A DNA stretch of 64,000 nt from Bacteroidota bacterium (GCA_013289475.1 JABCZW010000002.1:12265-76264), one strand, 5' to 3'. Shown: positions 8,515-41,560, numbered from the stretch's first letter. Notes: a model not told the origin generated them from the letters alone. Made by a program: numbers and translations.

Positions 8515-8519
8515 AATCT

Positions 8520-12929: not shown

Positions 12930-12942
12930 TTAATGAATGTCT

Positions 12943-15268: not shown

Positions 15269-15275
15269 AGATGAG

Positions 15276-18003: not shown

Positions 18004-18075
18004 GGCGCCGTAGTTCAATGGATAGAATAGAAGTTTCCTAAACTTTTGATATAGGTTCGATTCCTATCGGAGCCA
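18004..18075 (+). tRNA. tRNA-Arg (anticodon CCT)
   Basis: Hand-folded 72-nt cloverleaf. Acceptor GGCGCCG/CGGAGCC has one G4:A69 mismatch. D arm GTTC-AATGGATA-GAAT. Anticodon arm GAAGT-TTCCTAA-ACTTT. 4-nt variable loop. T arm ATAGG-TTCGATT-CCTAT. Discriminator A, no encoded CCA. Confidence 0.85.
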
Positions 18076-18096
18076 CTGGGTAAATAAACCCTTTTG

Positions 18097-18120
18097 AAAG
18101 CCTTATTTAATAAGGCTTTT
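18097..18120 (+). terminator. Hairpin terminator downstream of tRNA-Arg
   Basis: aaagccttat-ttaa-taaggctttt followed by a T-rich tract. Confidence 0.5.
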
Positions 18121-18274
18121 CACTTTTATGGCTTTTGTTTTTTTTTACTATAGAGTCGATGTTACACTACGCGGTTTTGAAGGACTCATAACATTGGCTT
18201 TATATATTTCATTTTCAATTAACATATTGTTAAACTGAAGCGGGTACTTTCGACCCCAATATATTAAAAATAAT

Positions 18275-19312
18275 ATGAAAAGAATCTCTTTAATGACTGT
18301 AGTTTCGGCTATAATAATGGCAATAGTTAGTAGCGGCTGTAAAGACAGGTATGTTGAAAAAATGAATTATACTTTTGTGGTTGCTGGCGATGACAGGGTT
18401 GCTCCTGAAGATACCGCAGGGAATCCGAGTACCATAAATATATACCATTTCAAACGCCTACTTGCAGAAGTAGCTCAACTCAGCCCTTTACCTAAATATT
18501 TGTTCTTTAATGGCGATTTGGTGTTGGGCTATACAGGCCATGATACTGTTAAACTGGCAAACGAACTAAGGGCTTGGATAAAGTTGTATAAAGAATCCCC
18601 TTTAGCTTCAAGTGGTGTGGAGCTGGTTGCCATACCCGGTAACCATGAGATTGTAGAAAAAGAAGGTTCAGGGAAAATAGCATTTGTAACAAATGAGAGA
18701 ATATTTGTGAGAGAGATGCATGATTACATACGGGGCGATAATGGCCCAAAAGCTACAGGCTTTGTTCCGGGAACAGATAGCTTATGGACAGATCAAAGCA
18801 GATTATCTTATTCATTTGACTTTGGAGGAGATCATTTTGTTATACTTAGCACCGATGCAGTAGCCCGTGAGAGCCGTATATCATGGCACTGGTTAAAAAA
18901 TGATTTAAAAGATGCTCATGAGAATGGTGCAAGGCATATATTCCTTTTTGGGCATAAACCTCCATTCCCGTCTCATTACGAATCTGAATCAGGTATGGAA
19001 GAGTTTAAAGCCAGTCGGGATAGTATGTGGGCCGTAATTGAAAAATATAATTGCGATGCTTATTTTGGATCTCATTTCCATTTATGGGATTCTGTGCAGA
19101 TGCACAAAGGCAAAACATGGGAAATAGTTTGCGGTAATTCGGGTGCACCAATGGGAAAAGACTGGCCACAAAGTTATTATGGTTATACAATTGTTGGTGT
19201 TTCTGATAAAGTTGATATTACAAGCATGGGCCATGATGTGGATAAGGAGCATTATACGGCTCCTACGCCTGATAAACCAACCACAGTACGCGCCAAGTTT
19301 ACTATTCAATAA
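18275..19312 (+). CDS. Calcineurin-like metallophosphoesterase lipoprotein
   Basis: 345-aa ORF. Lipobox AIVSSGC. MPE motifs VVAGDDRV, NGDLVLG, IPGNHE, LFGHKPP, GSHFHLW. Confidence 0.8.
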   Translation: MKRISLMTVVSAIIMAIVSSGCKDRYVEKMNYTFVVAGDDRVAPEDTAGNPSTINIYHFKRLLAEVAQLSPLPKYLFFNGDLVLGYTGHDTVKLANELRAWIKLYKESPLASSGVELVAIPGNHEIVEKEGSGKIAFVTNERIFVREMHDYIRGDNGPKATGFVPGTDSLWTDQSRLSYSFDFGGDHFVILSTDAVARESRISWHWLKNDLKDAHENGARHIFLFGHKPPFPSHYESESGMEEFKASRDSMWAVIEKYNCDAYFGSHFHLWDSVQMHKGKTWEIVCGNSGAPMGKDWPQSYYGYTIVGVSDKVDITSMGHDVDKEHYTAPTPDKPTTVRAKFTIQ

Positions 19313-19677
19313 CTTGGTTGTTGAGGTGCAACTGAATAGTGCTAACCCTATTTAAGGATTGTTAATACACGAATTTCTTTATCCTTATAAGGATATTATA
19401 TGAATGTTCTTTCATGAATATCTTATATGTCCTTATAAATTTTTCAATCAATATAAGGCGACAGATCACTTCGTCGTAGTTTCTATTAACTGATAGAAAG
19501 CCTTTATTTGTAGGATGCATTTAGATAAGAGACTGTAGTGTATTGAAAATAATATTTCACCCCTTATATAGTCACAGTAATGACTTAACAATAAATAACT
19601 GCCATCCTTTACATAAATAATTAACCCCTGCTCTTTGAGCAAGGGTTAATATGATTCAATAAAAGAGGTTAAATATA

Positions 19678-21168
19678 CTAGTGTGCGTTACCTGTACCGC
19701 TGCTTTGGTAACAGCCAATATCAACACCTGGTTGAGTTATGGTAGGGGCGAAATTTGGATTAGTCACATCATTTTTAACAGGGTTAGGTATATTTTGGAA
19801 TGGACTGAAGCCAACATATCCGGCACCAATTGCAGGAGAACCTGGTTTTAAATGAAAATCGTAGTTGCTTCCGGTAACAGATACGCCTGTTTCAAGAGAA
19901 CTTATGGCCGATAATGTTTGCCCGCCTGGAATGGGTTCAGGAAGCGGGAAATTAACAAACATTGGATTGTTTACACCGGCTAAACTTGGGTCGTTGTAAG
20001 CAAGGTCATCCCCACCATTTACAGTGCTGTTCGGGCTATAAAAACCCGCTGGCAGGTTAAGCTGGGCTGCGGAAGGAATAATGTATGCATTAGGCCTTGT
20101 CCATGTTCCTGCAGTAACCGGGAAAAACTGATTAACTTCAGATACTGAGTCAGAATAAATATAGTTGTTGGTATAAATTGTATTTGTTGTATCAGGCATA
20201 GGAATAGAGTTCTGTCCATCTCCAATACGAATACCATTACGACAATTTACAATAAGGTTATTGTAACATAAACCTCTTCCGCCTTGTTCATAGTCAATAT
20301 CTGAGCCACGGCTTGAAGGAGATGCTTGTCTGTAACCGCAATCTATATATGTATTGTTATACATATTAATGTTACACTGAACAAAAGACCCCGAACCTTT
20401 GTCTGAGCATTTAGTTGAGTTGGTGGCATTGCCTACACATAGGTTATAACACATGTCTCCTTGTGTTCCATGCTTTGCATTAACTCCATCCCCACCTAAA
20501 TAACCCATTTTTTCAAGAGTGTTACGAGCAATATAAATACGCCCCTGCTGAATGCGTATGCAATCATCCACAGAACCATATATCCAGCTATCAGTTATTA
20601 TTAAATCACCTTTAGGGTTTTGGAATAACACGCTAAATGAAGTTCCGCCTGAAGTGCCGCCAACAAATGGTTCAGTTGTGGCAAAGGTTCCGCCTGTAAA
20701 TTCAACATGTGTCCATTGCAGTTCGCATAAGGTGCATGATGTATCACAGTTGATTCCTGTCCACTTGCCTGAGTATGCAGGGTCGCTGGTAACAGGGTTG
20801 CCTATCTGATCAATTTTTGTAACTCCGCAAGCTGTAAACGAGTTAGGAGCAGCTTGCGTTCCGAGAGATATAAGAACACCTTTCACAATAATGGTTACAC
20901 CCGCACCTACACAAACGGTTACACCGGATTGAAGTAAAACGGTATCCCCTTTATTGATAGTAAAATCGCCGGTAAGTGTGTAGGTATTTCCAGAGGTCAT
21001 AGTTCCTTTGTATGAACCTGCCGATAAATTACCTGGGCTTATAGTTTGGCCTACCTGGAATGGAGGCGTGGAAACTACCGTTTTTTCAGTAGTGGCATTC
21101 TTTTTACAAGAAGGCAGCAGTGCAATTGCAGCTGCCAGCAATCCAAGAAGTAGAGAGTTCTTTTTCAT
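19678..21168 (-). CDS. Lipoprotein with right-handed parallel beta-helix-like repeats, partner of the upstream TonB-dependent receptor
   Basis: Start moved to MKKNSLLLGLLAAAIALLPSC (ATG at 21168), because a -7 promoter box lies inside the longer ORF. Repeated N/G/C-rich turns (CYNLCVGNATN, CNINMYNNTYIDCG, CYNNLIVNCRNGIRIGDG). Confidence 0.55.
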   Translation of the reverse strand: MKKNSLLLGLLAAAIALLPSCKKNATTEKTVVSTPPFQVGQTISPGNLSAGSYKGTMTSGNTYTLTGDFTINKGDTVLLQSGVTVCVGAGVTIIVKGVLISLGTQAAPNSFTACGVTKIDQIGNPVTSDPAYSGKWTGINCDTSCTLCELQWTHVEFTGGTFATTEPFVGGTSGGTSFSVLFQNPKGDLIITDSWIYGSVDDCIRIQQGRIYIARNTLEKMGYLGGDGVNAKHGTQGDMCYNLCVGNATNSTKCSDKGSGSFVQCNINMYNNTYIDCGYRQASPSSRGSDIDYEQGGRGLCYNNLIVNCRNGIRIGDGQNSIPMPDTTNTIYTNNYIYSDSVSEVNQFFPVTAGTWTRPNAYIIPSAAQLNLPAGFYSPNSTVNGGDDLAYNDPSLAGVNNPMFVNFPLPEPIPGGQTLSAISSLETGVSVTGSNYDFHLKPGSPAIGAGYVGFSPFQNIPNPVKNDVTNPNFAPTITQPGVDIGCYQSSGTGNAH

Positions 21169-21194
21169 TTTTTTAATTCGATTTAGATTTTGCG

Positions 21195-21202
21195 CAAAAC
21201 TA
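21195..21202 (-). promoter_or_regulatory. Candidate -7 box TAGTTTTG inside the shared motif AAAATAGTTTTGCGCAAA
   Basis: Minus-strand TAGTTTTG is a perfect TAnnTTTG, 26 nt upstream of the ATG at 21168. An almost identical motif lies upstream of the TBDR gene at 24195-24202. Confidence 0.45.
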
Positions 21203-21360
21203 TTTTCCACGTAACACGCGAGTATTATCGGCTGATTAAATAATCGTTAAAATAAATTGGCGGGATTAAGAGAATGTTAAGACCGAACATTTAATTATCT
21301 TTTATAGTATTAAGGCCACCGCAAGTGGTGCATTGTTACTTTTTATAAGATATAAAAACT

Positions 21361-24177
21361 TTAAAATTTATATCTTAAGCCCATCAAATATGTTTGACCA
21401 TAGTATTCCTTTTGCACCACTATACTATTTAAACTGGTGTTGTTGTCTTGATTCGGAAGCCATGCTGAAGTGCCGGGTATATTGGCATAGTTACTGGGTG
21501 GAAACATACGAATTACCAGCGGTGTATTTAGTATATTATTTACTTTTCCATACAGACTTAAGTTTATTTTCTTACTCAATCTTTTTTGAAAAGAGAATCC
21601 CATTGTAGTCATAGGCATCTGCCATTCATCAAGGCCATAATATTGGGCAATAAGGTAGACTGATTTACCTGTATAAACTAATGAAAGTTGTGCTTCAAAG
21701 CCTATGTTTGGGTTTTTATATATAAAAGAAAGATTTGCTATATTATCTACTTGTCCTTGTATTGGCCTTGTTTCAGTTGTATCAAAAGTTTTTGGCTGCC
21801 CGGTACCAACCGTATTGCGGTATATTAATTCAGGAGCGACAAGGCTGGAATGGGTGTAGGTGTAATTAGCAGATATTCCAAAATGCTTGATGTATTTAGT
21901 AATTGTGAATTCAAAACCATAGTTAATGGCAGGAACTGTATCACCGCCTATATTTATAGGTTGCTGAATTACAGCAGAAGGGCCGCCTGATGGAGAATGG
22001 ATTACTGCTTGCTCAATAGGGCCATATATTTGTTTGTAAAATACTCCAATCAATATTTGGTCTGAAGGTTTTGGGAAAAATTCATAACGCAAATCATAAT
22101 TATTGGCTGTTGTATGGAGTAAATAAGGGTTCCCATATTGATTGAATTGGTCCCCGCTTAGTTGATACGGCACTATATCAATAAAACTTGGTCGTGATAT
22201 AGATGCAAAGTAACTTGCATGTATAGCTTGTTTATCTGTTATATTATATTTAACCTCAACACTGGGCAGGTAGTCTGTATATTGTTTGGTTCCATTTTGG
22301 GCCACTACATTAATTGATTCGCCATCTACATAAGCTTGAGATGTGTTTTCAATTCGCATTCCACCGGCTAATTCTATTTTAGACAATAACTGTAACTTAA
22401 TCATACCATAATAAGCCGTTATATCTTCACCAACGCTGTACGAGTTATTGCTCATGGGTGTACCCAGTGGATTTACGAACACATAATAAGAAGGATTAGC
22501 CAAAATAGCATCTATGCCAGGATAATTTGGCTGAAAGGGAGTGGCTGCAAAATCATATTCATTTGAATAAGCATTTCTTGTTTTATCTCTATTCATTGCT
22601 CCTGTTTTTAATTCAACTTTTTGTCCGAATAAGTTAAAATGATAGGATAGATTAATATAGCCACTAAAATCCTGATCGGTACTTTGCATCCATACTCTTG
22701 AAAGTGAAGAAAAAACTGCTGTTGGCTGGCCCATGGTACCAAGAAGCGAAATGTCGTCCCAGTCAGGTATGTTTTCCCATGCGCGTGAATATGCGCCCGT
22801 CCAGTCAAGAAATAAATTATGGGCAAGCGTATCCTTACCTTTTAAAGTGGCATTAAATATATATTGTGAAGTAACCTTAGATTGATAATGAGGATTCATC
22901 TCACTGCCAGGTAATGAATTAGCCGTATCCTGTTCAATGCGCGAACGAATATCATTCATTTGGGTATAAACAGCATAAAAATCCATCCTGTGTTTAGGGC
23001 TAAATACATAATCAATTTTTAAATGTCCGGCCCCTCTAGTTTGCTGCTCCCAATAATCGCGGTTTGATACATAATCCCAAATTGGAGTATTTGGGTGCGG
23101 ACCGGGGTTTGGTTCTGATTGCTGTTTTATCCAAAATCCTTCGGTAGCGCTATAAATATTTTGAAAATTAGCCGATAACAATATACCTAGTCTTCCACCC
23201 AAAAATCTGTCGCCAAGAGTAAAGCCCGCAACCAGGTTTGGCGGAACAGCAACATCCTTATAGTTAATGTTTCCTGTTGGGAAATCAGAAACTTTTGCTG
23301 CATAATCTGAGCCATTTGTTTGAGCCGGACTATTGGTTTGTATGACACTCGAATTAAATTTCTCATATCCCTGGTTAAGTAAAGTTTGGTTAAACCCGGT
23401 CGCAAAGTCGGCAGAGAGATAAAATCTGTCAGGTGCATCTTTTAATACAAGGTTCATAGCTCCGCCAATGGCATTGGCTTCCATATCAGGTGTAAGGGTT
23501 TTGAAAACTTCCAGGCGTTCTACCATTTCGGCAGGAAATAGATCCATAGGTATATACCTGTTCCCATAGTCGGGGCTGGGTATCTGTACTCCGTCAATAG
23601 TTGTGTAATTATAATTTTTGTCCATTCCTCGTATGGTGGCATATTTTCCCCCTCCTGTTGTTGATTTTTCGACACTTACGCCAGATACCCGCTGTAATAC
23701 ATCTCCTATTGTCAAATCAGGCAACAATTGTATTGTCTTTGCCGACATTACGTTCATTAAAATATCTGAATTTTTTTCCTCACTTCTGGCATAGTTATCT
23801 GATTCTTTGGTATAGTTACTTGTTATAGTTACATTGCTTAAATTAATATGTGCCTCATTCATCTGGAAGTCTATTGTTATTACCTGGCTCTCATCTGATA
23901 TAGTAATTGTTTTTTCCTGTGTGGTATAACCGAAAAATTGGGCAACAAGTATATACGTGCCACGTTTTAAATTTTTTATGGAATAAGAACCATCCAGCCC
24001 TGCACCATCATGAATGCTGATACTATCTTTAACATAAACAGTAGCTCCTATAAGCCCTTCTTTACTTGCCGAATCTGCAACTTTACCTTTTACTGTGCCC
24101 GCTTGCACCAGCGATACAGAAACTATAAGTGTAATGAAACTCAGCAGGAAGCAGAATGAATATTTTTTACTTGTCAT
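21361..24177 (-). CDS. TonB-dependent outer-membrane receptor with N-terminal carboxypeptidase-regulatory-like domain
   Basis: Start moved to MTSKKYSFCFLLSFITLIVSVSLVQA (ATG at 24177). GTVKGKVADSASKEGLIGATVYV (CarbopepD_reg-like), plug region DVLQRVSGVSV...ATIRGMD, long beta-barrel ending ...MGLRYKF (terminal aromatic). Confidence 0.85.
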   Translation of the reverse strand: MTSKKYSFCFLLSFITLIVSVSLVQAGTVKGKVADSASKEGLIGATVYVKDSISIHDGAGLDGSYSIKNLKRGTYILVAQFFGYTTQEKTITISDESQVITIDFQMNEAHINLSNVTITSNYTKESDNYARSEEKNSDILMNVMSAKTIQLLPDLTIGDVLQRVSGVSVEKSTTGGGKYATIRGMDKNYNYTTIDGVQIPSPDYGNRYIPMDLFPAEMVERLEVFKTLTPDMEANAIGGAMNLVLKDAPDRFYLSADFATGFNQTLLNQGYEKFNSSVIQTNSPAQTNGSDYAAKVSDFPTGNINYKDVAVPPNLVAGFTLGDRFLGGRLGILLSANFQNIYSATEGFWIKQQSEPNPGPHPNTPIWDYVSNRDYWEQQTRGAGHLKIDYVFSPKHRMDFYAVYTQMNDIRSRIEQDTANSLPGSEMNPHYQSKVTSQYIFNATLKGKDTLAHNLFLDWTGAYSRAWENIPDWDDISLLGTMGQPTAVFSSLSRVWMQSTDQDFSGYINLSYHFNLFGQKVELKTGAMNRDKTRNAYSNEYDFAATPFQPNYPGIDAILANPSYYVFVNPLGTPMSNNSYSVGEDITAYYGMIKLQLLSKIELAGGMRIENTSQAYVDGESINVVAQNGTKQYTDYLPSVEVKYNITDKQAIHASYFASISRPSFIDIVPYQLSGDQFNQYGNPYLLHTTANNYDLRYEFFPKPSDQILIGVFYKQIYGPIEQAVIHSPSGGPSAVIQQPINIGGDTVPAINYGFEFTITKYIKHFGISANYTYTHSSLVAPELIYRNTVGTGQPKTFDTTETRPIQGQVDNIANLSFIYKNPNIGFEAQLSLVYTGKSVYLIAQYYGLDEWQMPMTTMGFSFQKRLSKKINLSLYGKVNNILNTPLVIRMFPPSNYANIPGTSAWLPNQDNNTSLNSIVVQKEYYGQTYLMGLRYKF

Positions 24178-24194
24178 ATAAACTAATTTGCGCG

Positions 24195-24202
24195 CAAAAC
24201 TA
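24195..24202 (-). promoter_or_regulatory. Candidate -7 box TAGTTTTG inside the shared motif AAAATAGTTTTGCGCGCAAA
   Basis: Minus-strand TAGTTTTG, 17 nt upstream of the ATG at 24177. It lies within the N-terminal extension of the ORF-track call, which supports the shorter start. Confidence 0.45.
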
Positions 24203-24332
24203 TTTTTATATGGTACTGTAAATAAGAATGAGTAGTTGATATAATAATTAAATAACAATTTTAACCTTTACTTAACTCCAACTGCACGGTAATCAGAAAT
24301 AATTAACCATGAAATAAGATTGTATTCATAAA

Positions 24333-25703
24333 TTATTCCTTTACAATTTTCCTGGTTACAGAAAATGTACCTGACCGGATGTTTAACATATATATGCCCG
24401 GGGCAAAATGAATTTCTATATTCATTAAGCTGGTTATGATGCTGAATTCTTTACTATTCACTAATCTTCCGCTAATATCGTACCAATGTATACTTGCTTT
24501 TTGCCCAATTAATTCGGGTGGAAAATGAATGTCGGCAAAATCATGTACCGGATTATTTACTTCTATTTTATCTTGCAGAGCGATGATTTTATTTATCCCG
24601 TTCACTACAGGGTCTGCGGGGCCATTACCCAAACTATCGTATGTAACGGCAAGTTTAACCATTATAGGATATTTATCTGAAAGTTGAAAAAGAGCATTAA
24701 TAACGTTTGAAGGTGCAGAAGTATTTTTCGGATCTCCTGTACTGTCGTTTATAGATGAATTAAAGTGTTTGCCATCGTTACCAATTGTTTGGTATGAATT
24801 AGTCACATATTTCATGAAGTCAATATTACCCGTAATCCACTTTGATAAAAAAATGTGCTCATACCAATCTTTAGCGCCTCCGCTTGCACCACAGCCATTG
24901 GGTATATTGGTGGCGCGTGTGGAAGTATTAAGATAACCGGAGCATGATATTTTATTGCTCCAGGCTTGTGGGTAGGTGAATTTGCCATCAGGATAAAAAG
25001 GTGGATCGTCAAAAATAAAACTAGTATCTGAAGTTGCCGTATATAATTCATACCCATTTTCAGTGCTGGTGTGGGTATTAAAGTCGCCCATACTTATTAA
25101 ATTAGGTAGGTGGTAAAAAAACGTTTTAAGTGATTTTATAACAGTAGTGTCCTGGTTATCCCGATCAGTGGTTGATGACCCGGAAACGGTATGGTTGAGG
25201 ACTATGTATATAAATGTAGTATCGTGTGTTGAGGAAACATAAGGGTCTTTGTAATATAATTTATAAAGGTCAAAGTCTTCTTGGTATGAGCATAAATTGG
25301 TTACAGAAACAAAACCCAACTTGCTTTGGTTATAAAACAATATGTCCATATCTCCATCAGCATCATTCGATACTCTTGTGAGTGTGCAATAAGCGTATTT
25401 GCCTTTATAAGTTGCTGAGTCAAGAGCAAACTTTATGATGGAATCTGCAAAGCCAATATGAGATATTCCGTCAAAATCAGATGCGTTAATTCTTATTGCC
25501 TGTGCTTTAACAAGACCTAATACATCGGGACTCGTATATTGTATAATAGCTTTAAGATTTTTGTGTAAAAATGTGTTTGAACCCTGGCATCCATCACCAT
25601 AATGAAGAACATTATAAGCCATTACTTTCAGCGTGTCCTGCTGCGCAAAAAGTAAATTGATAAAAAAAGTAAGTAATACAATAAGTGAATATCTGTACTT
25701 CAT
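24333..25703 (-). CDS. Secreted endonuclease/exonuclease/phosphatase (EEP) family protein with T9SS type-A CTD
   Basis: 456-aa ORF. Signal peptide, then LKVMAYNVLHYG (EEP N-terminal motif). ISMGDFNTHT, DWYEHIFLS. C-terminus IHWYDISGRLV...GIYMLNIRSGTFSVTRKIVKE. Confidence 0.7.
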   Translation of the reverse strand: MKYRYSLIVLLTFFINLLFAQQDTLKVMAYNVLHYGDGCQGSNTFLHKNLKAIIQYTSPDVLGLVKAQAIRINASDFDGISHIGFADSIIKFALDSATYKGKYAYCTLTRVSNDADGDMDILFYNQSKLGFVSVTNLCSYQEDFDLYKLYYKDPYVSSTHDTTFIYIVLNHTVSGSSTTDRDNQDTTVIKSLKTFFYHLPNLISMGDFNTHTSTENGYELYTATSDTSFIFDDPPFYPDGKFTYPQAWSNKISCSGYLNTSTRATNIPNGCGASGGAKDWYEHIFLSKWITGNIDFMKYVTNSYQTIGNDGKHFNSSINDSTGDPKNTSAPSNVINALFQLSDKYPIMVKLAVTYDSLGNGPADPVVNGINKIIALQDKIEVNNPVHDFADIHFPPELIGQKASIHWYDISGRLVNSKEFSIITSLMNIEIHFAPGIYMLNIRSGTFSVTRKIVKE

Positions 25704-29267: not shown

Positions 29268-29288
29268 ATAATATTATAAAAATTGAAA

Positions 29289-30344: not shown

Positions 30345-30504
30345 TCATAGGGTATTTATAAATAAATTACCATTCCCTTTACTTGAATTTAACATTGTCA
30401 TGGAATTTGGTTTCAAGTATTAGTAATTAATTAACGTGGCAGTAATATTTTGCTAAAAATGCAAGCGTACTCTTGCACCAAATTAATTTAATACTATTCC
30501 GATA

Positions 30505-33500: not shown

Positions 33501-35097
33501 AAACGTTTCAGGAGGCACAACAGGATATACATATAAATGGTATACAACTCCAAGTCAAACTACCCAAACAGCTACTGGGCTCATACCTGGTTTAGATTCT
33601 GTAAAGGTTACCGATGCGGATGGTTGTATTGCAAAGGGCTTTTATACAATTACTCAGCCTGGCCAATTCAGGGATTCTATCAGCTCATCTTCAAATGCGC
33701 TATGTAATGGAGCTAGCGGTAATGCCACTGTAGGAACAAAAGGCGGAACAACACCTTATGCATATTCCTGGTCCGATGGTAATACCAATGCAACTGATAA
33801 TAGTTTAACAGCAGGCACTTATACTGTAACTGTTAATGATGTAAATTTATGCGGACTGCTTACAAGTACTGTGACAATCACCGAGCCTACTGCTATTAGA
33901 GATTCTATAAGCACATCTATAAATGTAATATGTTATGGAGGAATGGGTAATGCAACTGCAGGAATAAAGGGTGGGGTATCACCATATTCATATTCATGGT
34001 CTGATGGTAATTCACAAACAACTGCAACCGCTACCAATCTTACCGCAGGCACATACACTGTAACTATGAGTGATGCAAATTTGTGTGGACCGGTTACATC
34101 GACAGTAACTATTACACAACCTGCCCAATTGAGAGACTCCATTAGTTCATTTGGAAATGTGCTTTGTAACGGGGGGACCGGAAATGCAACTGCGGCTATA
34201 AAGGGTGGCGTATCTCCATACACCTATGCATGGTCTAACGGGGCGTCAACAGCTTCGGTAAGCAGCGTTGCAGCAGGCACTTATACAGTAAGTATAAACG
34301 ATGCAAACTTATGCGGTCCACTTACTTCTACTGTAACTATTACACAACCTGCGCAATTGAGGGATTCTGTTACAGCTGTAGATATTACTGAAGGATGCGT
34401 TGGACAGAATGATGGAAGTGCTTCTGTAAGTATTAAAGGTGGTACAACCGCGTATTCTTATTCATGGAATACAACTCCGGTTCAAACAGCTTCAATAGCT
34501 TCAAACCTTGGTGCAGGTAACTATACAGTGGTAGTAACTGATGCAAATAATTGCGTTGCCAGCGCTAATTTTACAATAAGACCTGATAGTGTTCCTGTAA
34601 TTAATTTTAATTTGGCAGCTGATTCTGTTCAGTGCGATACAGTTAAAGCTGTTTCATTAATTTCCACGGCTACTCCTGCTGGCGGTTCATTTAGCGGCCC
34701 GGGTGTTTCGGCAAATAATTTCCATCCTAAATCGTTGGGGGTTGGTAAATACCTTATTACATACACCTATAGTAATAAGTATGGTTGTCAAAGTTCTGCA
34801 ACACAGGCTATGATAGTAAAATCATGTGTTTTTACGGGCATAGCACAATCAGCAGTAGCAGACAATATTGTTGTATTTCCTAATCCAACCACAGGACAGG
34901 TTAGTATAAATGGGCTTACCATTGGTACAACATTAGAGTTGTATAATGATATTGGTATGCTTGTAAAAACAACAACAGTTAATAGTGAAACTATGCTGCT
35001 CAATATTGCTGACCTGTCTAATGGAGTATATATGATGAGAGTTATTTATAAAGATGGAGCTTCTGTGATTCAGAAAAAGATAATAAAACTCCAATAA
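30505..35097 (+). CDS. Giant SprB-repeat adhesin-like protein with two copies of the unnamed module and a T9SS type-A CTD
   Basis: 1530-aa ORF. Signal peptide ...QESKAQQQ. Module copy 1 at aa ~24-288 and copy 2 encoded at nt 32350-33006. About 15 SprB repeats (C.G..(T/N)G.A......GG..PY.YSWS......GL..G.Y.VTV.D.N.C). C-terminus VFPNPTTGQVSINGL...GVYMMRVIYKDGASVIQKKIIKLQ. Confidence 0.85.
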   Translation: MKTKLTQVAIVLLAFLFTLQESKAQQQLIHFWDFNQTYPSGGAGDSLGTPYAYANSGATSWGNSQVTSAADAAKKTSTLFANYSRLPFSATYANDARILFLRPTAKQTVPYAATARDSMIDNGATTGSFIYDYSAYNYVYNNTSDSASSNMFVRTRNPVENAYMYIYAPTTGFNNVNFNFALTASSASGAQYLLFNYSTDGGTTWKNLTTAMDTFNIGGVKRPDTLLATNPTTIVSAWYPVQMNFTSDISVNNNPNFIIRVGFGGNNSAKGSGNNRFDNFAILGDSNTSNIVSYFVNRTNIPKCYGDSTGSATVITKGGLTPYTYSWSNNVNVTATGKTSATCTGLSAGTYTVTVTDFNDIASTAVVTILQPTKVIPTLSTQTNVLCYGNTTGSAKAVGAGGTGPYTYSWSSGGGTSQTVSNLGQGAYTCTVTDKLGCPGTVIANITQPATAITATVTTSPVTCSTFGSANTIVSGGTPYKIGNSYVYHWSNGAATASIGGLGTGIVSDTIKDSNKCLVIATGTVTTSGAIINLTPTDITCNGSSNGAITSSVSGGTTPYTYSWSNSATTTSVSGLAPGGYTLTITEGNSCVSSASTVISQPNVLNDTVESVTPLVKLIHYWDFNSTQPIGGAGGDSLGNIANPLIPEFTTLSSANPHMIYSHPISGGITDNVGGPPYAFINDLHAAGNDTNSQSTNNVGVRTRNPVQNSSFVWYIPTTGYQNIMLDWALSASSSKGAQYLVFHYSTDGGTSWNKLTSVMDTFNTGGKIHPDSVNAINPTTSASNWYPVHIDLSSVAAANNNPNLVFMINYAGSNVTNTSGNNRFDNISVKGSEIPRVTCNGSNNGSGIVVASGGTTPYAFSWSTGETTATVTDLPPGTSSVTVTDKNGCSMMATVNVINPPVLTNSLVVNNGCNNSNNGTITSVPSGGTGPYSWSWSNTSAGSMVSGLTPGSYSVTVTDIHGCIATSSVTLTNPALLTVTPAPTNITCNGLNNGQAVANVSGGTTGYTYKWYTTPSQTTQTATGLIPGLDSVKVTDADGCIAKGFYTITQPGQFRDSISSSSNALCNGASGNATVGTKGGTTPYAYSWSDGNTNATDNSLTAGTYTVTVNDVNLCGLLTSTVTITEPTAIRDSISTSINVICYGGMGNATAGIKGGVSPYSYSWSDGNSQTTATATNLTAGTYTVTMSDANLCGPVTSTVTITQPAQLRDSISSFGNVLCNGGTGNATAAIKGGVSPYTYAWSNGASTASVSSVAAGTYTVSINDANLCGPLTSTVTITQPAQLRDSVTAVDITEGCVGQNDGSASVSIKGGTTAYSYSWNTTPVQTASIASNLGAGNYTVVVTDANNCVASANFTIRPDSVPVINFNLAADSVQCDTVKAVSLISTATPAGGSFSGPGVSANNFHPKSLGVGKYLITYTYSNKYGCQSSATQAMIVKSCVFTGIAQSAVADNIVVFPNPTTGQVSINGLTIGTTLELYNDIGMLVKTTTVNSETMLLNIADLSNGVYMMRVIYKDGASVIQKKIIKLQ

Positions 35098-35107
35098 GTA
35101 CAAAGTA

Positions 35108-35151: not shown

Positions 35152-35250
35152 TTAATTTTAGATTTATTAACATACCACTAATAATGTAATAATATCAATA
35201 CCCTATTCTTGCAGCTTTAATTAACATTCACCTAACAAAAAATCAATTAT

Positions 35251-36264
35251 ATGAAAACAAAAATTACCATCCCTTTAGTATGCGCATTTATTTTATTATT
35301 TTCTTTAAGAGAAGTTAAAGCTCAAACATTAATTCAATATTGGGATTTTAATAATACCCCCCCTGCCGGTGGCGGTGCACACGATAGTCTTGGTAACGTT
35401 ACCAATGCCTTAGTTGCCAACCAGGTATTTGCAGGGCTAACTCCAGGGCATATCATTTATTCACGCCCAAGCGCTCATTTTGGTTCAACCGGTTTGAGAG
35501 ACAGTATATTAGATAATGGTTCAGGTGGTGCTGCATTTTATGATTACAGCAACAGCAACGATACCGGGAGCAGTGCAGCCGGAAACCTGTTTATAAGAGC
35601 GCGTAATCCGTCTGACAGTTGTACGTTTACTATATATGCTCCAACTACAGGGTTTAAGAATATTTCAATGCAATATGCCATTTCTACTTCAAGCTCAGCA
35701 GCAGCTCAATATAATATACTTTCATACAGTACCGATGGAGGTAGTACCTGGAAGAAATTAACTACTGCAATGGATACATTTAATATTGGTGGTGTACGTT
35801 ACCCAGATACATTACAAGTAGAAAATCCAGTTACTGCTGCCAGTGGATGGTATCCTGTTCAAATAAACTTTACAAGCGATCCTGCAGTAAATAATAACCC
35901 AAATTTTGTTTTAAGCTGGATCATTGCGGGTTCTAATTCATCAATAGGCAGCCATAATGACAGGTATGATAATATCGCTGTATGGGGCACTTCTGTAAAT
36001 GGTATTAATGAGTTACCAGCTGAGGCTGCAGGCTATAATGCTTATCCTAACCCGGCAGGAGATATAGTAACCATTGATGGAACATACATAGGTAAAAAAC
36101 TGGTTACAATCTATAACATTCTTGGACAGTCAGTTGTTTCTGTTGCAGATGATAAAAAACAAGTGCCTGTGAATATTTCAAGTTTAACTTCAGGAGTGTA
36201 TTTTGTAAACATTAAAGAAGTAACAACCGGGATAAATTATACACTTAAGCTGGTAAAGAATTGA
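35251..36264 (+). CDS. Minimal member of the module family: signal peptide, unnamed module and T9SS type-A CTD
   Basis: 337-aa ORF. MKTKITIPLVCAFILLFSLREVKAQT. LIQYWDFNNTPP...DRYDNIAVWG. C-terminus AYPNPAGDIVTIDG...GVYFVNIKEVTTGINYTLKLVKN. Confidence 0.75.
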   Translation: MKTKITIPLVCAFILLFSLREVKAQTLIQYWDFNNTPPAGGGAHDSLGNVTNALVANQVFAGLTPGHIIYSRPSAHFGSTGLRDSILDNGSGGAAFYDYSNSNDTGSSAAGNLFIRARNPSDSCTFTIYAPTTGFKNISMQYAISTSSSAAAQYNILSYSTDGGSTWKKLTTAMDTFNIGGVRYPDTLQVENPVTAASGWYPVQINFTSDPAVNNNPNFVLSWIIAGSNSSIGSHNDRYDNIAVWGTSVNGINELPAEAAGYNAYPNPAGDIVTIDGTYIGKKLVTIYNILGQSVVSVADDKKQVPVNISSLTSGVYFVNIKEVTTGINYTLKLVKN

Positions 36265-36412
36265 TTTTTATACTTCCCGTTTATGAATAAAGCGTATAGT
36301 GTATTGGTTATTCAAATGCTTTAGCCTACATTGCATGTCAGTATAAATCTAAGCAAGTACCATAAGGCGCTTAAATGAATCAGATGATAATTAACCATAA
36401 AAATAACCGCAT

Positions 36413-37636
36413 ATGAATTTTATAGATATTCATTGTCATCCTTCAATGAAAATTAACTTATTCAATCGCCACATTTATGATGTGGCTCATCCTGGAGGTA
36501 CCGGGCTTGAATTCAGCACTAATATGTTTGTCAATCTTCCTAATATGAAAACAGGAGGAGTTAATGCCGCTATTTCAGTGCATCATATACCTGAAATTGA
36601 ACTACAGGATGATGTGAAAAGAAGAGCCATCGGGAATTTGTTGGTTGATACACTTGATGGAGCTTGTGGCCCTTATATGAGCAGAAGATTTCAGGATATT
36701 TCTACTCCTACTGCTGCATTTGGACAAATGAAGGCAATAATTAACAAATTCGAAGATGATGTTGAAGCTGCAACGAGGATGCCGCATAATTTCAAAGCGG
36801 CCGTAGCAAAGAGCCTTACTGAATTTAATCACTTAATCAGCAATGGGTATACAGTATTTCTTCATAGCATAGAAGGAGCTCATTGTCTTGGCATTAATAG
36901 TTTAGATTACAATACTGTTGAACCAGAAATAATAGCATTATTTAATGCAGGCGTTTGCCAGTTTACATTAGGTCATTTTTTTGAAAATGTTCTTGTTTCT
37001 TCTTCGGGTGGTATTCCGCCAAAAATAGCTGATTTAATAGACTATAACACTGGAAATAATTACCCGGCTGGATATAATCCAGCAACAGCACAACAAGCAA
37101 TAGCTAAAATGTTAGACCTCGGTATAATTATTGATCTTGTCCATACTCATAGTTCTGCCAAACAAATGATTTATACTCTAAACAAAAATAGGGGTGTTGA
37201 TAAAAGACCGCTTGTATTTTCTCATACAGGAATACAGGAAATTGCGTTAAAGTATAACCCCAAAATGCCTCAACAATATTATGAGTATTTACCCAATGCC
37301 ACAGATATTGCCGAAATACGCGATTGTGGAGGTGTGCTTGGAATTATTTTTATGGATTATTGGCTTGAAGGTAATGAAAGCACCCAAGCGGCAATAGATA
37401 TAGTAATTGAAACAATTCAGTTTATTGCTGCTAAGTGCGGCAGCAAGTACGATAATATTGCAATAGGATCAGATTTGGATGGATTTACAGAGGTTCCTAG
37501 AGATCTTTCTGGTTCTGATAAAATGCCTGCTTTGATTGATGCAATGTCGAGAAGTGGTATACAGATGAGTGACATTGAAAATATCTGTTTCAATAATTAT
37601 ATGCGAGTGCTGAAAAACGGCTGGGGTAAGCAATAA
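36413..37636 (+). CDS. Peptidase M19 (membrane/renal dipeptidase-like) family metallohydrolase, divergent, no signal peptide
   Basis: 407-aa ORF. The motif series IDIHCHP, SIEGAHCL, TLGHFFEN, IIDLVHT, VFSHTG, IGSDLDGF follows the M19 metal-ligand order (DGHND / EG / L.HF / D.SH / SHS / G.DFDG). Confidence 0.7.
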   Translation: MNFIDIHCHPSMKINLFNRHIYDVAHPGGTGLEFSTNMFVNLPNMKTGGVNAAISVHHIPEIELQDDVKRRAIGNLLVDTLDGACGPYMSRRFQDISTPTAAFGQMKAIINKFEDDVEAATRMPHNFKAAVAKSLTEFNHLISNGYTVFLHSIEGAHCLGINSLDYNTVEPEIIALFNAGVCQFTLGHFFENVLVSSSGGIPPKIADLIDYNTGNNYPAGYNPATAQQAIAKMLDLGIIIDLVHTHSSAKQMIYTLNKNRGVDKRPLVFSHTGIQEIALKYNPKMPQQYYEYLPNATDIAEIRDCGGVLGIIFMDYWLEGNESTQAAIDIVIETIQFIAAKCGSKYDNIAIGSDLDGFTEVPRDLSGSDKMPALIDAMSRSGIQMSDIENICFNNYMRVLKNGWGKQ

Positions 37637-37646
37637 ATAAAATTCT

Positions 37647-39026
37647 ATGGCAAAAAGAGATAGTAAAGATCTTATTGGGCTTAGTCGCTCTCCATTGATA
37701 AACAGATATTTGTCTGATCAGGAAGCCAAAACTGGTGCTATTCCCGCACCACCTAAAAATAAATTTTCAGGCTTACTTGATACAAACGTAATAAGCTGGA
37801 TTGTGCAGAATCTTCCAGCCCTATTCCGCGATCATGCACCATATCAAACATACAAACAAGGGGAAGGTGTTTTTTCTATGACAACTACTAAAGGGCGGAA
37901 TAAAGCAAATATTGCATTACTTGCCGATTGGGCTTCATGCACTAGTGAATCCGAAAGAGTAGCAGGACTTGTTGGAAAGAAGCACCCCGATTATTCTATT
38001 CACTTGGGTGACACTTATTTTATTGGTAATGAAACACAGGTAGAGGAAAATTTCGGGAAAGATGGGGCATGGCCCAAAGCACCTTACGGGAATTTTGCAC
38101 TGATTGGCAACCACGAAATGTATTCAGGTGGTGATGCATATTTTAAAACTCTGCTTCCATATATGGGCATATTGGAAGGGGGAAAAATTACAAGTCCACA
38201 AAAGGCCCCTTTCTTCTGTTTAGAAAATGATTATTGGCGTGTGATAGGTATAGATACAGGTTATGATTGCCTTTCAGGTCCATTTAGTAATAATACTTCA
38301 CTACAACTGCCACCCCAGCTTATGGAGTGGCTATGGCACACTGCTAAGTTAAATAATGATAAGAAAGGGCTTATCTTTCTGTCACATCATCAATATTGCT
38401 CAGCATTTAAACAATTACCCAATGCTAAATTTGATTGGTTCAATGAAGAAGAGTTTCAGGAACCAGCGAAACAATTAGCAGCACTGATTGGCCAGGACCG
38501 CCCTGTAATATGGTTATGGGGGCATGAGCACAGATTGGCAATATATGGTTGCTACCAGGTTGCCAACGGTATAAAAGCATTTGGTCGGTGTATAGGTAAT
38601 GGCGGTATGCCATGCGACTTGGTTTATAACCCATCCAAAGCATTTGGCCTTGATACCTCAACTGATAATAATGATATTATCCAATACTCACTAGATCAGG
38701 TCAAAGCGAGAAAAATACAGGCACAAACCAGTAAGTTGGTTTTGCAGGATAACCGATATGTGCAGGAAATATCGGGCGTAAGATTAGGTCATAATGGATA
38801 CACCATGCTCTCCTTTGATAATGAAGCATTAACTATAGATTATTATGACGATGCTTTGTCGTATCCAATTATTACTGAAAAATGGACTATCAATCTCGCA
38901 AATGGACAGTTGAGAGGAATAAATATTGTAGATGCGACCAAAGGCAACTATCCGAATAATGATTCTGATATAACCAAGTTGTTTCATTTTTCATCTGATA
39001 TAAATGATGCAATAACAATAAAATAA
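37647..39026 (+). CDS. Calcineurin-like metallophosphoesterase, cytoplasmic type (no signal peptide)
   Basis: 459-aa ORF, 10 nt after the dipeptidase gene. Motifs ALLADWAS, IHLGDTYF, LIGNHEMY, IFLSHHQ, WLWGHEHR. Confidence 0.8.
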   Translation: MAKRDSKDLIGLSRSPLINRYLSDQEAKTGAIPAPPKNKFSGLLDTNVISWIVQNLPALFRDHAPYQTYKQGEGVFSMTTTKGRNKANIALLADWASCTSESERVAGLVGKKHPDYSIHLGDTYFIGNETQVEENFGKDGAWPKAPYGNFALIGNHEMYSGGDAYFKTLLPYMGILEGGKITSPQKAPFFCLENDYWRVIGIDTGYDCLSGPFSNNTSLQLPPQLMEWLWHTAKLNNDKKGLIFLSHHQYCSAFKQLPNAKFDWFNEEEFQEPAKQLAALIGQDRPVIWLWGHEHRLAIYGCYQVANGIKAFGRCIGNGGMPCDLVYNPSKAFGLDTSTDNNDIIQYSLDQVKARKIQAQTSKLVLQDNRYVQEISGVRLGHNGYTMLSFDNEALTIDYYDDALSYPIITEKWTINLANGQLRGINIVDATKGNYPNNDSDITKLFHFSSDINDAITIK

Positions 39027-39081
39027 CTATGGAGCTAGCCGAAAATCCAATTAAGAGTAGGCATATTTAATTATAAATAAT

Positions 39082-39738
39082 ATGGAGCCCTTTCTTTCTC
39101 ATCCCTCTTTGACGTTCTGGGTAATTTATATAGCCCTCTTAACTTGTTTTTATTTCTGTGATAAAAAATTTGAGATGCTTCGTGATATAAGTATGGCTGA
39201 TCCTAAGCCATATAGTTTTTCACGTGTTCAACTGGCTTGGTGGACTGCTATAGTTCTGGCTGCATTTATAAGCACTGCGCTTATACAAAACCACGTACCT
39301 ACTTTATTGGATTCTACTCTGTATTTAATTGGCATATCAGGTGCCACAACAGCAGCAGGCAAAGTGATAGATTCTTCTGATAAACGGAATCCAGATATTT
39401 CCCGTCACCAGGATTCAAAGGGTGATAACTTTCTTCTTGATATACTTTCAGATGAGAATGGTATAAGTATTCACCGGTTTCAAACAGTAGTTTTCAATTT
39501 TGCCTTCGGTATTGGGTTCATTATTCATGTATTAAGACAGCTAAATATCCATGATAATGTTGTTAAGCTTCTTAATCCTATGTTAGATATCACACCCAAT
39601 AATCTTATATTACTAGGTCTTAGTTCGGCAACTTATATAGGATTGAAAACAACTGAAAACTCTACAAGTACTCAGCCACCAGTTAATGAGTTTATTAAGG
39701 ATGAAGGAAAAAGTGATTCGACAATTCCAAAAGGATAA
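39082..39738 (+). CDS. Multi-pass membrane protein of unknown function (4-5 predicted TM segments)
   Basis: 218-aa ORF. Hydrophobic segments LTFWVIYIALLTCFYF, LAWWTAIVLAAFISTALI, LYLIGISGATTAAG, FQTVVFNFAFGIGFIIHVL, LILLGLSSATYIGL. Its stop lies 3 nt before the amidase start. Confidence 0.55.
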   Translation: MEPFLSHPSLTFWVIYIALLTCFYFCDKKFEMLRDISMADPKPYSFSRVQLAWWTAIVLAAFISTALIQNHVPTLLDSTLYLIGISGATTAAGKVIDSSDKRNPDISRHQDSKGDNFLLDILSDENGISIHRFQTVVFNFAFGIGFIIHVLRQLNIHDNVVKLLNPMLDITPNNLILLGLSSATYIGLKTTENSTSTQPPVNEFIKDEGKSDSTIPKG

Positions 39739-39741
39739 CTT

Positions 39742-40518
39742 ATGGGAAACATGAATATAATTAAAAAGACCTGCCCCAATTATTCTACTGGCAGAACAGG
39801 CTACCGGCCGGAAGCTATTGTAATACATGTTATGGATGGCACTTTAGTTGGTACCGATAGCTGGTTTGCGAATCCACAGTCAAATGTTTCTGCTCACTAC
39901 GGTATTGGAAAAATAGGGGAAATACATAACTACGTTGTTGAGGAAAATACAGCATGGCATGCCGGAAGAATTAATACTCCATCTTGGAAATTGATTAAAC
40001 GGACAATCAATGGCGATTATATTAATCCTAACCTCTATACTATAGGTATTGAACACGAAGGTACTGTTGACAGTGACTGGCCAGAAACTATGTATCAATC
40101 AAGTGGTAATTTAATAGCCCAGATTGCTGCAAAATGGAATATTCCTATCGACAGACAACATGTTATAGGACATCATGAAATTTATGCCTTAAAGCCATGC
40201 CCAGGTAATAAAGTTGACATGAGTAAATTAATTGCAGTGGCTATAGGAGATATAAAGACACACCTGGATGCAATTGCTAATCCAACCCCTTTGCAAGGAT
40301 CAGGACTAACTATATGCGCGTTAAATATGCGATTTAAACCTAACAGAGATATAGCACCTGTCTATACTGTTAACAAAGGGACAGTTTTAAATTATGTAGG
40401 CTATAGTGACCAAGGTGAAAATATAAATAAGGTTAGCAAGTGGTATTGCACCGAAGATGGTTTTTGGTTTTGGGGTGGTGGAGTTGAAAATAATTCAACA
40501 GTAGATCAGAAACATTAG
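39742..40518 (+). CDS. N-acetylmuramoyl-L-alanine amidase (Amidase_2/PGRP type) with C-terminal SH3-like wall-binding domain, no signal peptide
   Basis: 258-aa ORF. IVIHVMDGTL..SAHYGIGKIGEIHNYV..NTAWHAG, IGIEHEG, HVIGHHEI...CPG (zinc-amidase signature). The C-terminal ~90 aa (ALNMRFKPNRDIAPVYTVNKGTVLNYVGY...WY) is SH3b-like. Confidence 0.85.
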   Translation: MGNMNIIKKTCPNYSTGRTGYRPEAIVIHVMDGTLVGTDSWFANPQSNVSAHYGIGKIGEIHNYVVEENTAWHAGRINTPSWKLIKRTINGDYINPNLYTIGIEHEGTVDSDWPETMYQSSGNLIAQIAAKWNIPIDRQHVIGHHEIYALKPCPGNKVDMSKLIAVAIGDIKTHLDAIANPTPLQGSGLTICALNMRFKPNRDIAPVYTVNKGTVLNYVGYSDQGENINKVSKWYCTEDGFWFWGGGVENNSTVDQKH

Positions 40519-40535
40519 TAAAAAAACCAAATCAA

Positions 40536-40626
40536 AATGCATCACTTTTGCTTCACCATGAAGGAAGCATAATAGTAAACTCTTTATTAATGGCGACTCT
40601 TAGAAAGGGTTCGATTCGGGAGTCTC
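40536..40626 (+). repeat. Intergenic repeat unit A (aatgcatcac block, 73 nt, then gttcgattc tRNA-T-loop-like block)
   Basis: It shares 22 of 26 nt at its 5' end and the gttcgattc block, at nearly the same spacing, with unit B at 41435-41531. Confidence 0.6.
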
Positions 40627-40666
40627 TTAAATATCAGCACTTAAAATCTAGTATATTTGTTTTCCT

Positions 40667-41209
40667 ATGAGTACTGAATTTAATACCGGTTCACGTGTTG
40701 AACATCCCGGCTTTGGTAAGGGAGTTATTGTGTCTGTAGAAGCTGAATATTATGTGATATGGTTTAAGTCCCAGCAAGGCACTAAGATTGTAAACAAGAA
40801 TGAAAACTTGCAGTTACTCACAGTCTCTGACAATGGGCCAATTAATATAACTGTAACGCTCGGTGATATTGAAGATGCACTTGAACGAATACTGAACAGA
40901 AGAATAGATACTTCAGAGACTATTCCTATGGCTATAAAATGGAACAAAGGCACATTAGTATTTAAACCGGCTGAAGCCGAAGTTCAATCAAAGGAGATAC
41001 CTATCGAGACTTTCTTCCACAAAATTGTGATGGTGCGCGATAAACTACGGGTAATGGAACAGAAAATTAATGCCCATAAAATGCTGACTGATTATGAAAA
41101 GGTGGAATTGCAGCAATATATAACTGGCATTTATGGCTCACTTACTACATTTAATATACTATTTAAAGACAGCGACCACCATTTTAAAGGTGTAGTTGGG
41201 AAGGAATAG
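40667..41209 (+). CDS. Hypothetical protein with N-terminal DUF3553-like (UvrD C-terminal Tudor/SH3-like) segment
   Basis: 180-aa ORF. GSRVEHPGFGKGVIVSVE resembles the G..V.H..FG.G.V signature. The remainder is predicted helical and unassigned. Confidence 0.45.
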   Translation: MSTEFNTGSRVEHPGFGKGVIVSVEAEYYVIWFKSQQGTKIVNKNENLQLLTVSDNGPINITVTLGDIEDALERILNRRIDTSETIPMAIKWNKGTLVFKPAEAEVQSKEIPIETFFHKIVMVRDKLRVMEQKINAHKMLTDYEKVELQQYITGIYGSLTTFNILFKDSDHHFKGVVGKE

Positions 41210-41434
41210 GGTTTATATGTGCCTTTATTAGAATTAACTACTTACATATAAGTTATAATGTAAAACTATAACTGCAAATTCACTTTTAATCGCTGCAATA
41301 TCTCCTGTTTTTTCTACGTGCCACCTCAGATTGTTATTGTCAGACATAACAACAAAATAAGGTTCGCCTTTACTGTACTCTTTTGGCCAAACGCCTTATG
41401 CTTTTAAATTGTTTTATTTCAATCTAATTTAAAG

Positions 41435-41531
41435 AATGCATCACCTTTGTATCACCTTGATTAGGGTGTTGATTATAATGTATTGATAAACAATGAATTG
41501 TATTAAAAAGTTCGATTCCTATCGGAGCCAC
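41435..41531 (+). repeat. Intergenic repeat unit B, ending in a perfect 22-nt copy of the tRNA-Arg 3' end (candidate attR)
   Basis: 41510-41531 gttcgattcctatcggagccac is identical to 18054-18076 minus its first base, that is T-loop through discriminator plus 1 nt. The 5' block contains the direct repeat atcacctt-N3-atcacctt. Confidence 0.8.
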
Positions 41532-41532
41532 G

Positions 41533-41560
41533 AGGGGGTTTTCACCCCCTTTTTCATTTT
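41533..41560 (+). terminator. Hairpin terminator immediately after the tRNA-3'-end copy
   Basis: aggggg-ttttca-ccccct followed by ttttcatttttt. Its position fits an original tRNA terminator. Confidence 0.5.

Follow-up and report, generated by a model that had tools for sequence, protein, structure and literature searches.

Elements that are flanked by attachment (att) sites but have no integrase, known as cis-mobilizable elements (CIMEs), are well established, as is the tandem accretion of such elements (PMC5704250). A partial tRNA copy is a standard marker of the attR end of an insertion, and later rearrangement can separate it from the full gene (PMC9897764). The portion of tRNA genes from the T loop to the 3' end is one of the sublocations used as att sites by tyrosine integrases (Williams 2002, as cited in PMC9897764). 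In this study, we analyzed a locus of this kind in a 64,000-nucleotide stretch of DNA from a Bacteroidota bacterium (GCA_013289475.1, JABCZW010000002.1:12265-76264; this whole stretch is referred to below as the window), in which a tRNA-Arg gene and a perfect 22-nt copy of its 3' end bracket a 23.4-kb segment.

A preliminary description of the window had interpreted this segment as a candidate fossil genomic island, i.e., an integrase-mediated insertion into the tRNA gene that has since been immobilized. One part of that interpretation is supported. The attL/attR-type signature is backed by an empty-site junction in relatives, by a fixed left boundary of the displaced copies and by a conserved arm motif upstream of them. 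The other part, horizontal acquisition, is contradicted by native-like composition, by the lack of an integrase and by orthologs of at least 8 of the 13 enclosed genes at other sites in relatives. Our preferred reading, to which we assign a probability of about one half, is that the locus carries a non-autonomous, CIME-like, att-bounded segment of mostly resident DNA, composed of two units and located at a clade-wide tRNA-Arg hotspot that is served in trans. The data support the view that the 22-nt repeat is a genuine recombination scar and that the bracketed 23 kb are mostly relocated resident genes rather than a foreign island minus its integrase.

The tRNA-Arg(CCT) gene, the 22-nt repeat and their junctions

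The single tRNA gene found by ARAGORN in the window is an intact tRNA-Arg(CCT) at 18004-18076 on the plus strand, which is identical at 73 of 73 positions to the tRNA of one relative (L090) and of many others, and which would be the attL-side target (B-O). Its 3' part forms the repeat, GTTCGATTCCTATCGGAGCCAC, which extends from position G53 to one base beyond the discriminator. There are two exact copies, both on the plus strand: the proximal core (O) at 18055-18076 and the distal copy at 41510-41531. Identity is limited to exactly these 22 nt, as the neighboring bases differ on each side and the flanks are unrelated. No third copy exists in the window at up to three mismatches, and 100 shuffled sequences gave 0 occurrences; the same-orientation repeat that had been noted before is thus confirmed and is not a product of chance. 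Both junctions are also present in the Logan contig SRR8422915_385, which is 100% identical over 8275-51209. This identity backs the assembly, but it does not represent an independent lineage.

Relatives were sought through the methionyl-tRNA synthetase (MetRS) gene, located just upstream of the tRNA. GTDB representatives (80 loci) were too distant, with MetRS identities of 71% or less and a non-syntenic upstream flank. A large protein collection yielded MetRS relatives at 87-75% identity, and a metagenome scan for the 22-mer yielded 25 further stretches. In the identity series of MetRS, L113 stands at 95%, L101, L116 and L107+L108 at 90%, L105, L115, L094 and L098 at 87%, L121, L095, L100, L103, L106 and L120 at 81-82%, and L090 at 80%. 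MetRS and housekeeping genes occupy the upstream side of the tRNA, and the upstream genes are syntenic with window positions 157-17997 in every relative of this series. The genes downstream of the tRNA, on the other hand, change from lineage to lineage. They include a caspase-family protease, PAP2 phosphatases, a response regulator with Usp, OmpA/Kelch proteins, TPR proteins, a NeuB-type sugar cluster and giant adhesins. Strict synteny upstream, together with lineage-specific content downstream, identifies the tRNA-Arg locus as a hotspot.

The distal copy is followed at once by a G+C-rich hairpin with a T-run (terminator scan; hairpin 41532-41551), in accord with the terminator placed there by the preliminary description. 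This hairpin opens a flank, designated B (41532-41652, plus strand), that also contains a degenerate T-loop-like relic (41610-41633) and a degenerate version of the arm motif described below (41639-41657). It had been proposed that an empty site, with the tRNA directly followed by sequence similar to that from 41532 onward, should be sought in relatives. We found this junction in L113, where a homolog of the B flank directly follows the tRNA (92% identity over 143 nt), and in L116/L107 (89%). Since the B flank adjoins the tRNA in these relatives, the distal terminator is the former terminator of the tRNA gene, and the B flank its former proximal flank.

In the window, the position next to the tRNA is occupied by a short conserved unit with two hairpins and a terminator, the A flank (18077-18145, plus strand). 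The same unit follows the tRNA in L101, L104, L096, L094 and L098, and it follows isolated 22-mers, i.e., copies without a tRNA, in L097 and L110; the cargo beyond it is different in each case. Each of the three flank types A, B and C follows the tRNA in certain genomes and an isolated copy in certain others. Such swapping between tRNA-adjacent and isolated positions is the pattern seen in tandem accretion.

Several additional observations concern the tRNA and its relatives. The 4:69 pair of the acceptor stem is non-Watson-Crick in the window, L083, L085 and L090 (G.A, or G.G in L085), and the pairs next to it covary (C6-G67 to T6-A67 in L083). Because the mismatch is conserved while its neighbors covary, it is native to this tRNA and not a recombination artifact. 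A tmRNA called by ARAGORN over the MetRS 3' end to tRNA-Arg (L107 4697-5130, L116 7263-7696) is almost certainly a false positive. In a sister lineage (L087-L089, 12490-14477; MetRS 82%, with another upstream context and another tRNA 3' end), a series of small open reading frames (ORFs) of 47-165 aa comes after the tRNA-Arg, and the contigs stop short of any boundary; the small ORFs of L087 had no match in PHROGs. Finally, the identical 22-mer was detected in an unrelated organism (L092 1213-1234, L093, L099 and L102), about 300 nt from tRNA-Lys/tRNA-Thr. Neither ARAGORN nor Rfam (gathering threshold) called an RNA gene over it, and ARAGORN reported an odd "tRNA-??? (gatc)" nearby. This locus could be an interrupted or intron-containing tRNA-Arg.

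Arm and core modules downstream of the tRNA

Isolated 22-mers occur in L097, L108, L109, L110 and L114, and a lineage-specific variant occurs in L120. In all six contigs the copy starts at the same base, G53, and this is also the left boundary of the distal core of the window, the candidate displaced tRNA 3' end of the attR type. A motif, ATGnnTCACCTTTGnnnCAC (ATGnnTCAC(C/T)TTTGnnnCAC), lies 52-54 nt upstream of the isolated copies and is invariant in six of six. Two TCACCT half-sites lie 11 bp apart within it. From motif to core, the spacing is constant (52-54 nt), but the spacer sequence is unrelated between copies. Elsewhere in the window and in 120 loci, the motif is absent.

The conserved island-side arm of the distal site in the window spans 41388-41509 (plus strand), with the motif ATGCATCACCTTTGTATCAC at 41436-41455 followed by a 54-nt spacer. 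Over approximately 120-140 nt upstream of the distal copy, this arm is homologous to its counterparts in L097, L109 and L114. In L120, the tRNA carries a variant 3' end, CCTGCCGGAGCCAC, which the isolated copy and its flank also follow. An isolated copy that tracks its own variant tRNA behaves as expected of a displaced host 3' end.

In a second subfamily of modules, motif and spacing are unchanged but the core is different, GTTCGATTCGGG. Its members were found in the window, L113 (twice), L107/L116, L106 and L120. The window copy, a K-type module at 40533-40626 on the plus strand, consists of ATGCATCACTTTTGCTTCAC, a 52-nt spacer and GGGTTCGATTCGGGAGTCTC (nhmmer E = 2e-16), and homologous units are located at 4121-4217 and 10233-10330 of L113 and at 5257-5344 of L107. 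Without exception, the modules are located downstream of the tRNA, on the same strand. With the module at 40533-40626, a 180-aa ORF (40667-41209, plus strand) is bracketed by two modules. This ORF has no Pfam or PHROG match; its N-terminus, GSRVEHPGFGKGVIVSVE, presumably resembles the small Tudor/SH3-like domains found at the C-termini of PcrA/UvrD-type proteins. The preliminary description did not include the module at 40533-40626, the T-loop-like relic in the B flank or the arm motif located 54 nt ahead of the distal copy.

In relatives, the sites delimit segments of very different size. The tRNA and the isolated copy of L107+L108 are 10.5 kb apart and bracket essentially one ORF of 3227 aa, and two modules of L113 bracket three genes. 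In L120, the tRNA and the isolated copy bracket only about 330 nt, which consist of arms, and the next module closes a 9.3-kb sugar cluster. No Rfam family, shared fold or consistent promoter was found for the modules; the module is thus best read as a DNA site recognized by a protein, in which the arm motif would be a protein-binding arm site. A scan of viral contigs for the 22-mer gave no match. The single module match in viral contigs is inside a coding region of a high-GC phage and was judged to be due to chance.

The second copy of the tRNA 3' part in L090 is of another kind. It is part of a tandem duplication of 184 nt, which takes in the anticodon arm as well as about 90 nt of the flank downstream and is devoid of the arm motif. 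This is a different, non-integrative route to a second copy. Inside the duplication (L090 12191-12292; also in L112) lies a partial pseudo-tRNA-Arg that extends from the 3' half of the D arm to the 3' end and has a 27-nt hairpin insert, cctgcccgaactgcaaggcaggcgggg, in its variable region.

Content and origin of the bracketed segment

Pfam searches detected no recombinase or transposase domain in the 13 enclosed ORFs, and no recombinase domain in any other ORF of at least 100 aa across the 64 kb, in agreement with the earlier statement that no integrase, excisionase or transposase could be found. A search for integrase relics had also been suggested. The segment is 91% coding, with only 2007 nt of its 23.4 kb non-coding and a largest gap of 365 nt, which leaves no room for a hidden relic. 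No integrase was seen beside the sites or in the bracketed segments of relatives, and no backbone genes of integrative and conjugative or integrative and mobilizable elements (ICEs and IMEs) were seen in the window or in the loci of about 10 relatives. The G+C content is 0.378 inside versus 0.392 and 0.368 outside. In tetranucleotide distance, the segment lies within the range of equal-length segments elsewhere in the window. A composition matching the flanks had been named in advance as evidence against an island, and it argues against foreign origin.

For at least 8 of the 13 genes, relatives have orthologs at other chromosomal sites, without repeats and with divergence similar to that of the flank genes; the cargo with orthology to chromosomal blocks in relatives amounts to at least 17 kb. 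Mean identities to the genomes of two relatives are 58% and 56% for the inside genes and 66% and 67% for the flank genes, i.e., the two sets are about equally diverged if faster evolution of surface proteins is allowed for. The clearest case is block 1 (18275-25703), which Pfam resolves into a Metallophos gene on the plus strand and genes for a SusD-like protein, a TonB-dependent receptor (TBDR) and a protein with a type IX secretion system (T9SS) tail on the minus strand. Its orthologs are found in the same order, at 50-79% identity, at non-tRNA loci of L122, L123 and L124, and no tRNA, 22-mer or module is present at these three native loci; the block appears to be resident DNA of the clade. 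L124, the closest relative for block 1 (50-79%), has the four genes amid housekeeping genes. In the L090 genome, the block is located at a distance of about 107 kb from the tRNA, and a response regulator and a homolog of a 337-aa protein come after it; the L120 genome has the same block about 60 kb from the tRNA, beyond MetRS on the other side. Orthologs of the first gene, Metallophos, share contigs with the tRNA-Arg of two relatives.

The 337-aa T9SS-tail protein itself is encoded in the window at 35251-36264 (plus strand), and it is 49% and 39% identical to the products of genes just past block 1 in L122 and L123; L124 has neither this homolog nor the response regulator. Conservation of the gene order in relatives without the repeat had been offered as grounds for abandoning the island. 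This was observed for block 1, and for the 337-aa gene in two of the three relatives, at 60-107 kb from tRNA-Arg where the distance is measurable. The pair of M19 dipeptidase and second Metallophos genes (36413-39026, plus strand), which appears to be portable, is the only patchy part of the cargo. Its best non-self homolog is 58% identical, although relatives with MetRS identities of 80-95% exist, and the pair is found in an unrelated context in a Chitinophagales metagenome-assembled genome. The best M19 match is the only indication that the clade may be placed near Chitinophagales.

Between block 1 and the 337-aa gene lies block 2 (25932-35097, plus strand), which Pfam identifies as genes for a CHU_C adhesin, PorP/SprF and SprB. 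Its orthologs, 61, 56 and 52% identical, adjoin tRNA-Arg in L090, where they are inverted and outside the repeat pair of that genome. Where the window has this 9-kb CHU_C-PorP-SprB set, L122 (17887-18561) and L123 (17651-18328) have a response regulator, which points to a separate replacement event inside the bracket. A single inversion relative to L090 was considered and rejected: the orientations fit, but the internal order does not, as CHU_C-PorP-SprB lies between the 456-aa and 337-aa genes. In L121 (19550-20558), PorP/SprF is present as two ORFs (147 and 173 aa), probably a pseudogene, beside a giant SprB/CHU_C adhesin of 2312 aa.

In all, the 13 ORFs include two Metallophos genes, the SusD-like and TBDR genes, and four T9SS-tail proteins, including the CHU_C-PorP/SprF-SprB operon; the remainder are the M19 dipeptidase, a 218-aa ORF of unknown function and an endolysin-like Amidase_2 gene (together 39082-40518, plus strand), and the 180-aa ORF. 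When the unannotated ORFs were compared with PHROGs, only endolysin-like matches were obtained, for the amidase. Pfam agrees with the gene classes originally assigned, i.e., phosphoesterases, a TBDR with a partner lipoprotein, a T9SS adhesin locus and a peptidoglycan-hydrolase cluster. The left breakpoint falls between the end of the A flank, at about 18145, and about 18190, the point from which native sequence upstream of the Metallophos gene can be recognized.

Two other candidates were discarded. A DUF748 gene beside the Metallophos block in L124, tried as an inversion-breakpoint marker for window positions 57061-59406, is 25% identical and is a paralog. A match of L110 to 62535-64000, tried as an extension of the island, reflects similarity of large secreted-protein genes, and no att relic was found at 61.7-62.2 kb. 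The gene concerned starts at 62224 and has about 75% nucleotide identity to the gene after the isolated 22-mer in L110 (2053 onward). Upstream of it, the intergenic region 61950-62020 has three direct copies of TATTTCTACGTATTT, which may be a regulator binding array.

Competing explanations and comparison with known systems

In the preferred reading, site-specific recombination at the T-loop-to-3'-end core, carried out by a recombinase encoded elsewhere, would have placed a non-autonomous segment between the tRNA and its old flank. The distal 22-mer would then be an attR-type scar, composed of the displaced tRNA-Arg(CCT) 3' end plus the former terminator and flank, and the region to its left would be a conserved recombination arm with two TCACCT half-sites at a fixed 52-54 nt from the GTTCGATTC core. 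Throughout a family-level clade of uncultured Bacteroidota, the DNA just downstream of the tRNA would be a hotspot of recombination, in which arm and core modules on the strand of the tRNA delimit segments of unrelated content. The 23.4 kb of the window would comprise two units, 18077-40626 and 40627-41531, and form a mosaic mainly of resident chromosomal operons. Internal shuffling, e.g., replacement of the response regulator by CHU_C-PorP-SprB, would have followed. We infer both the trans-acting integrase and the arrival of the segment in one step.

Several points weigh against this reading. The recombinase is hypothetical, as none was identified, and there is no ICE/IME backbone remnant, unlike in typical CIMEs. 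The relatives are all metagenome contigs, many of them short. Homology at the empty site is short as well (about 120 nt by BLAST and about 190 nt by eye), and since the genes differ past it, relatives offer no clean state that lacks only the island. The native block in L122, L123 and L124 has no flanking module, so that the route of resident genes to an att-bounded state is unaccounted for. In addition, L090 demonstrates that a plain tandem duplication can yield a second copy of the tRNA 3' part.

The strongest of the alternatives, which we nevertheless regard as doubtful, is a dedicated cassette platform at tRNA-Arg(CCT). Here, a recombinase encoded elsewhere would act on an array of arm and core modules (two TCACCT half-sites, 52 nt and GTTCGATTC) and would capture, exchange and reshuffle resident operons, often T9SS adhesin, surface or secreted loci, in an integron-like manner on a tRNA T-loop core; the modules would then not be the debris of ordinary mobile elements. 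Such a platform would fit the arrays found downstream of the tRNA in five lineages, which have two or three modules on one strand, unrelated cargo and in no case an integrase. It would also fit the presence of both single-gene and multi-gene units, the "empty" array in L120, the native composition of the cargo and the recurrence of T9SS adhesin operons beside the sites. However, no recombinase is known, no modules mark the block boundaries inside the 22.4-kb unit of the window, modules are also missing from the native block 1 copies of relatives, and core and structure are unlike those of integron attC sites. Moreover, accretion and decay of ordinary elements would explain the pattern equally well.

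It is unlikely that site-specific recombination was not involved at all, the distal 22-mer being a relic of a partial tandem tRNA duplication into which inversions or translocations later inserted resident DNA. A duplication of this type, with its downstream flank, does exist in L090, and rearrangement is evidently rampant, as blocks 1 and 2 are placed and oriented differently in every relative; inversion is known to separate partial from full tRNA copies (PMC9897764). Yet the left boundary is sharp and identical in seven independent isolated copies, and a motif that is not part of the tRNA lies at a fixed distance from each of them. The 22 nt are perfect beside wholly unrelated sequence, and gradual decay into the tRNA body and flanks is seen only in L090. 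Duplication also accounts poorly for flank types that swap tRNA-adjacent and isolated positions and for the direct orientation of all copies.

We consider quite unlikely the classical fossil island, in which a foreign element with its own integrase entered the tRNA-Arg 3' end, lost integrase and excisionase and is now immobilized. The attL/attR-like direct repeat with an empty-site junction in relatives, the accessory-type cargo and the M19-Metallophos pair, which has no close ortholog in otherwise well-sampled relatives, would all be expected of it. They are set against G+C content and tetranucleotides indistinguishable from the flanks, a gene density that leaves no place for an integrase relic to hide, and the orthologous cargo blocks elsewhere in relatives, which have flank-like divergence and no repeats. 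Every other bracketed segment seen in relatives is likewise without an integrase.

Finally, it is very improbable that the module is a small RNA gene or promoter-leader, with the arm motif as promoter and a transcript that includes the tRNA-like 22-mer and ends at the terminator: the arm motif does contain TTTG, the Bacteroidetes -33 element, a strong terminator follows the 22-mer and the K-type module lies upstream of the 180-aa ORF, but the RNA-gene version was rejected for want of an Rfam hit, a shared fold or covariation and because the spacer sequence is free, the sigma-70 or Bacteroidetes promoter version was rejected because no -7 element is consistent, the T-stem 5' strand is absent so that no T-arm can form, and downstream genes lie on either strand.

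A direct repeat of a tRNA fragment is commonly regarded as proof that an island was acquired horizontally. If a genuine scar brackets mostly the organism's own DNA, repeat-based island callers would mislabel 23 kb of resident genes as foreign. The arm and core module provides a sequence handle for tracing the responsible recombinase in complete genomes of a poorly known clade. It could also help test site-specific cassette exchange as a source of surface and adhesin diversity in T9SS-bearing Bacteroidota; a cassette-shuffling platform, if true, would be considerably more interesting than a CIME-like segment.

The locus resembles tRNA-targeted islands in its ends, one being an intact tRNA and the other a direct repeat of the 3' part from the T loop; as in such islands, the displaced copy retains the old downstream flank, and an unoccupied junction is found in relatives. 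It differs in that integrase, excisionase and mobility genes are absent, the composition is native, and most of the cargo has orthologs in resident blocks of the chromosomes of relatives. Mobilizable elements of the NBU1/NBU2 type in Bacteroides integrate into tRNA-Leu/Ser 3' ends and encode their own integrase and mobilization genes. They share with the present locus the phylum, a core identical to a tRNA 3' end and the expectation of arm-type sites, and differ from it in their integrase and mobilization genes, which are lacking here.

Integron cassette arrays are similar in that sites of the same orientation separate promoter-less or self-contained units of unrelated function and the array is anchored at one chromosomal point. 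In contrast to integrons, no intI lies beside the array and no recombinase within 64 kb, units reach 22 kb, and the core is GTTCGAT... (GTTCGATTC) rather than GTTRRRY, with neither an inverse core nor a conserved attC hairpin.

The closest resemblance is to CIMEs, such as those related to ICESt1 (PMC5704250). CIMEs are recognizable decay products of ICEs or IMEs with backbone remnants, whereas none was seen here in about 10 lineages and the cargo appears to consist of native operons; the combination of native cargo with no element backbone across these lineages is the departure from textbook cases. In their sequence, the ends of the segment are att-like, with a core and a conserved arm. Like CIMEs, the segment has no integration or transfer genes and forms tandem units at one target, where a newer insertion displaces the older flank distally.

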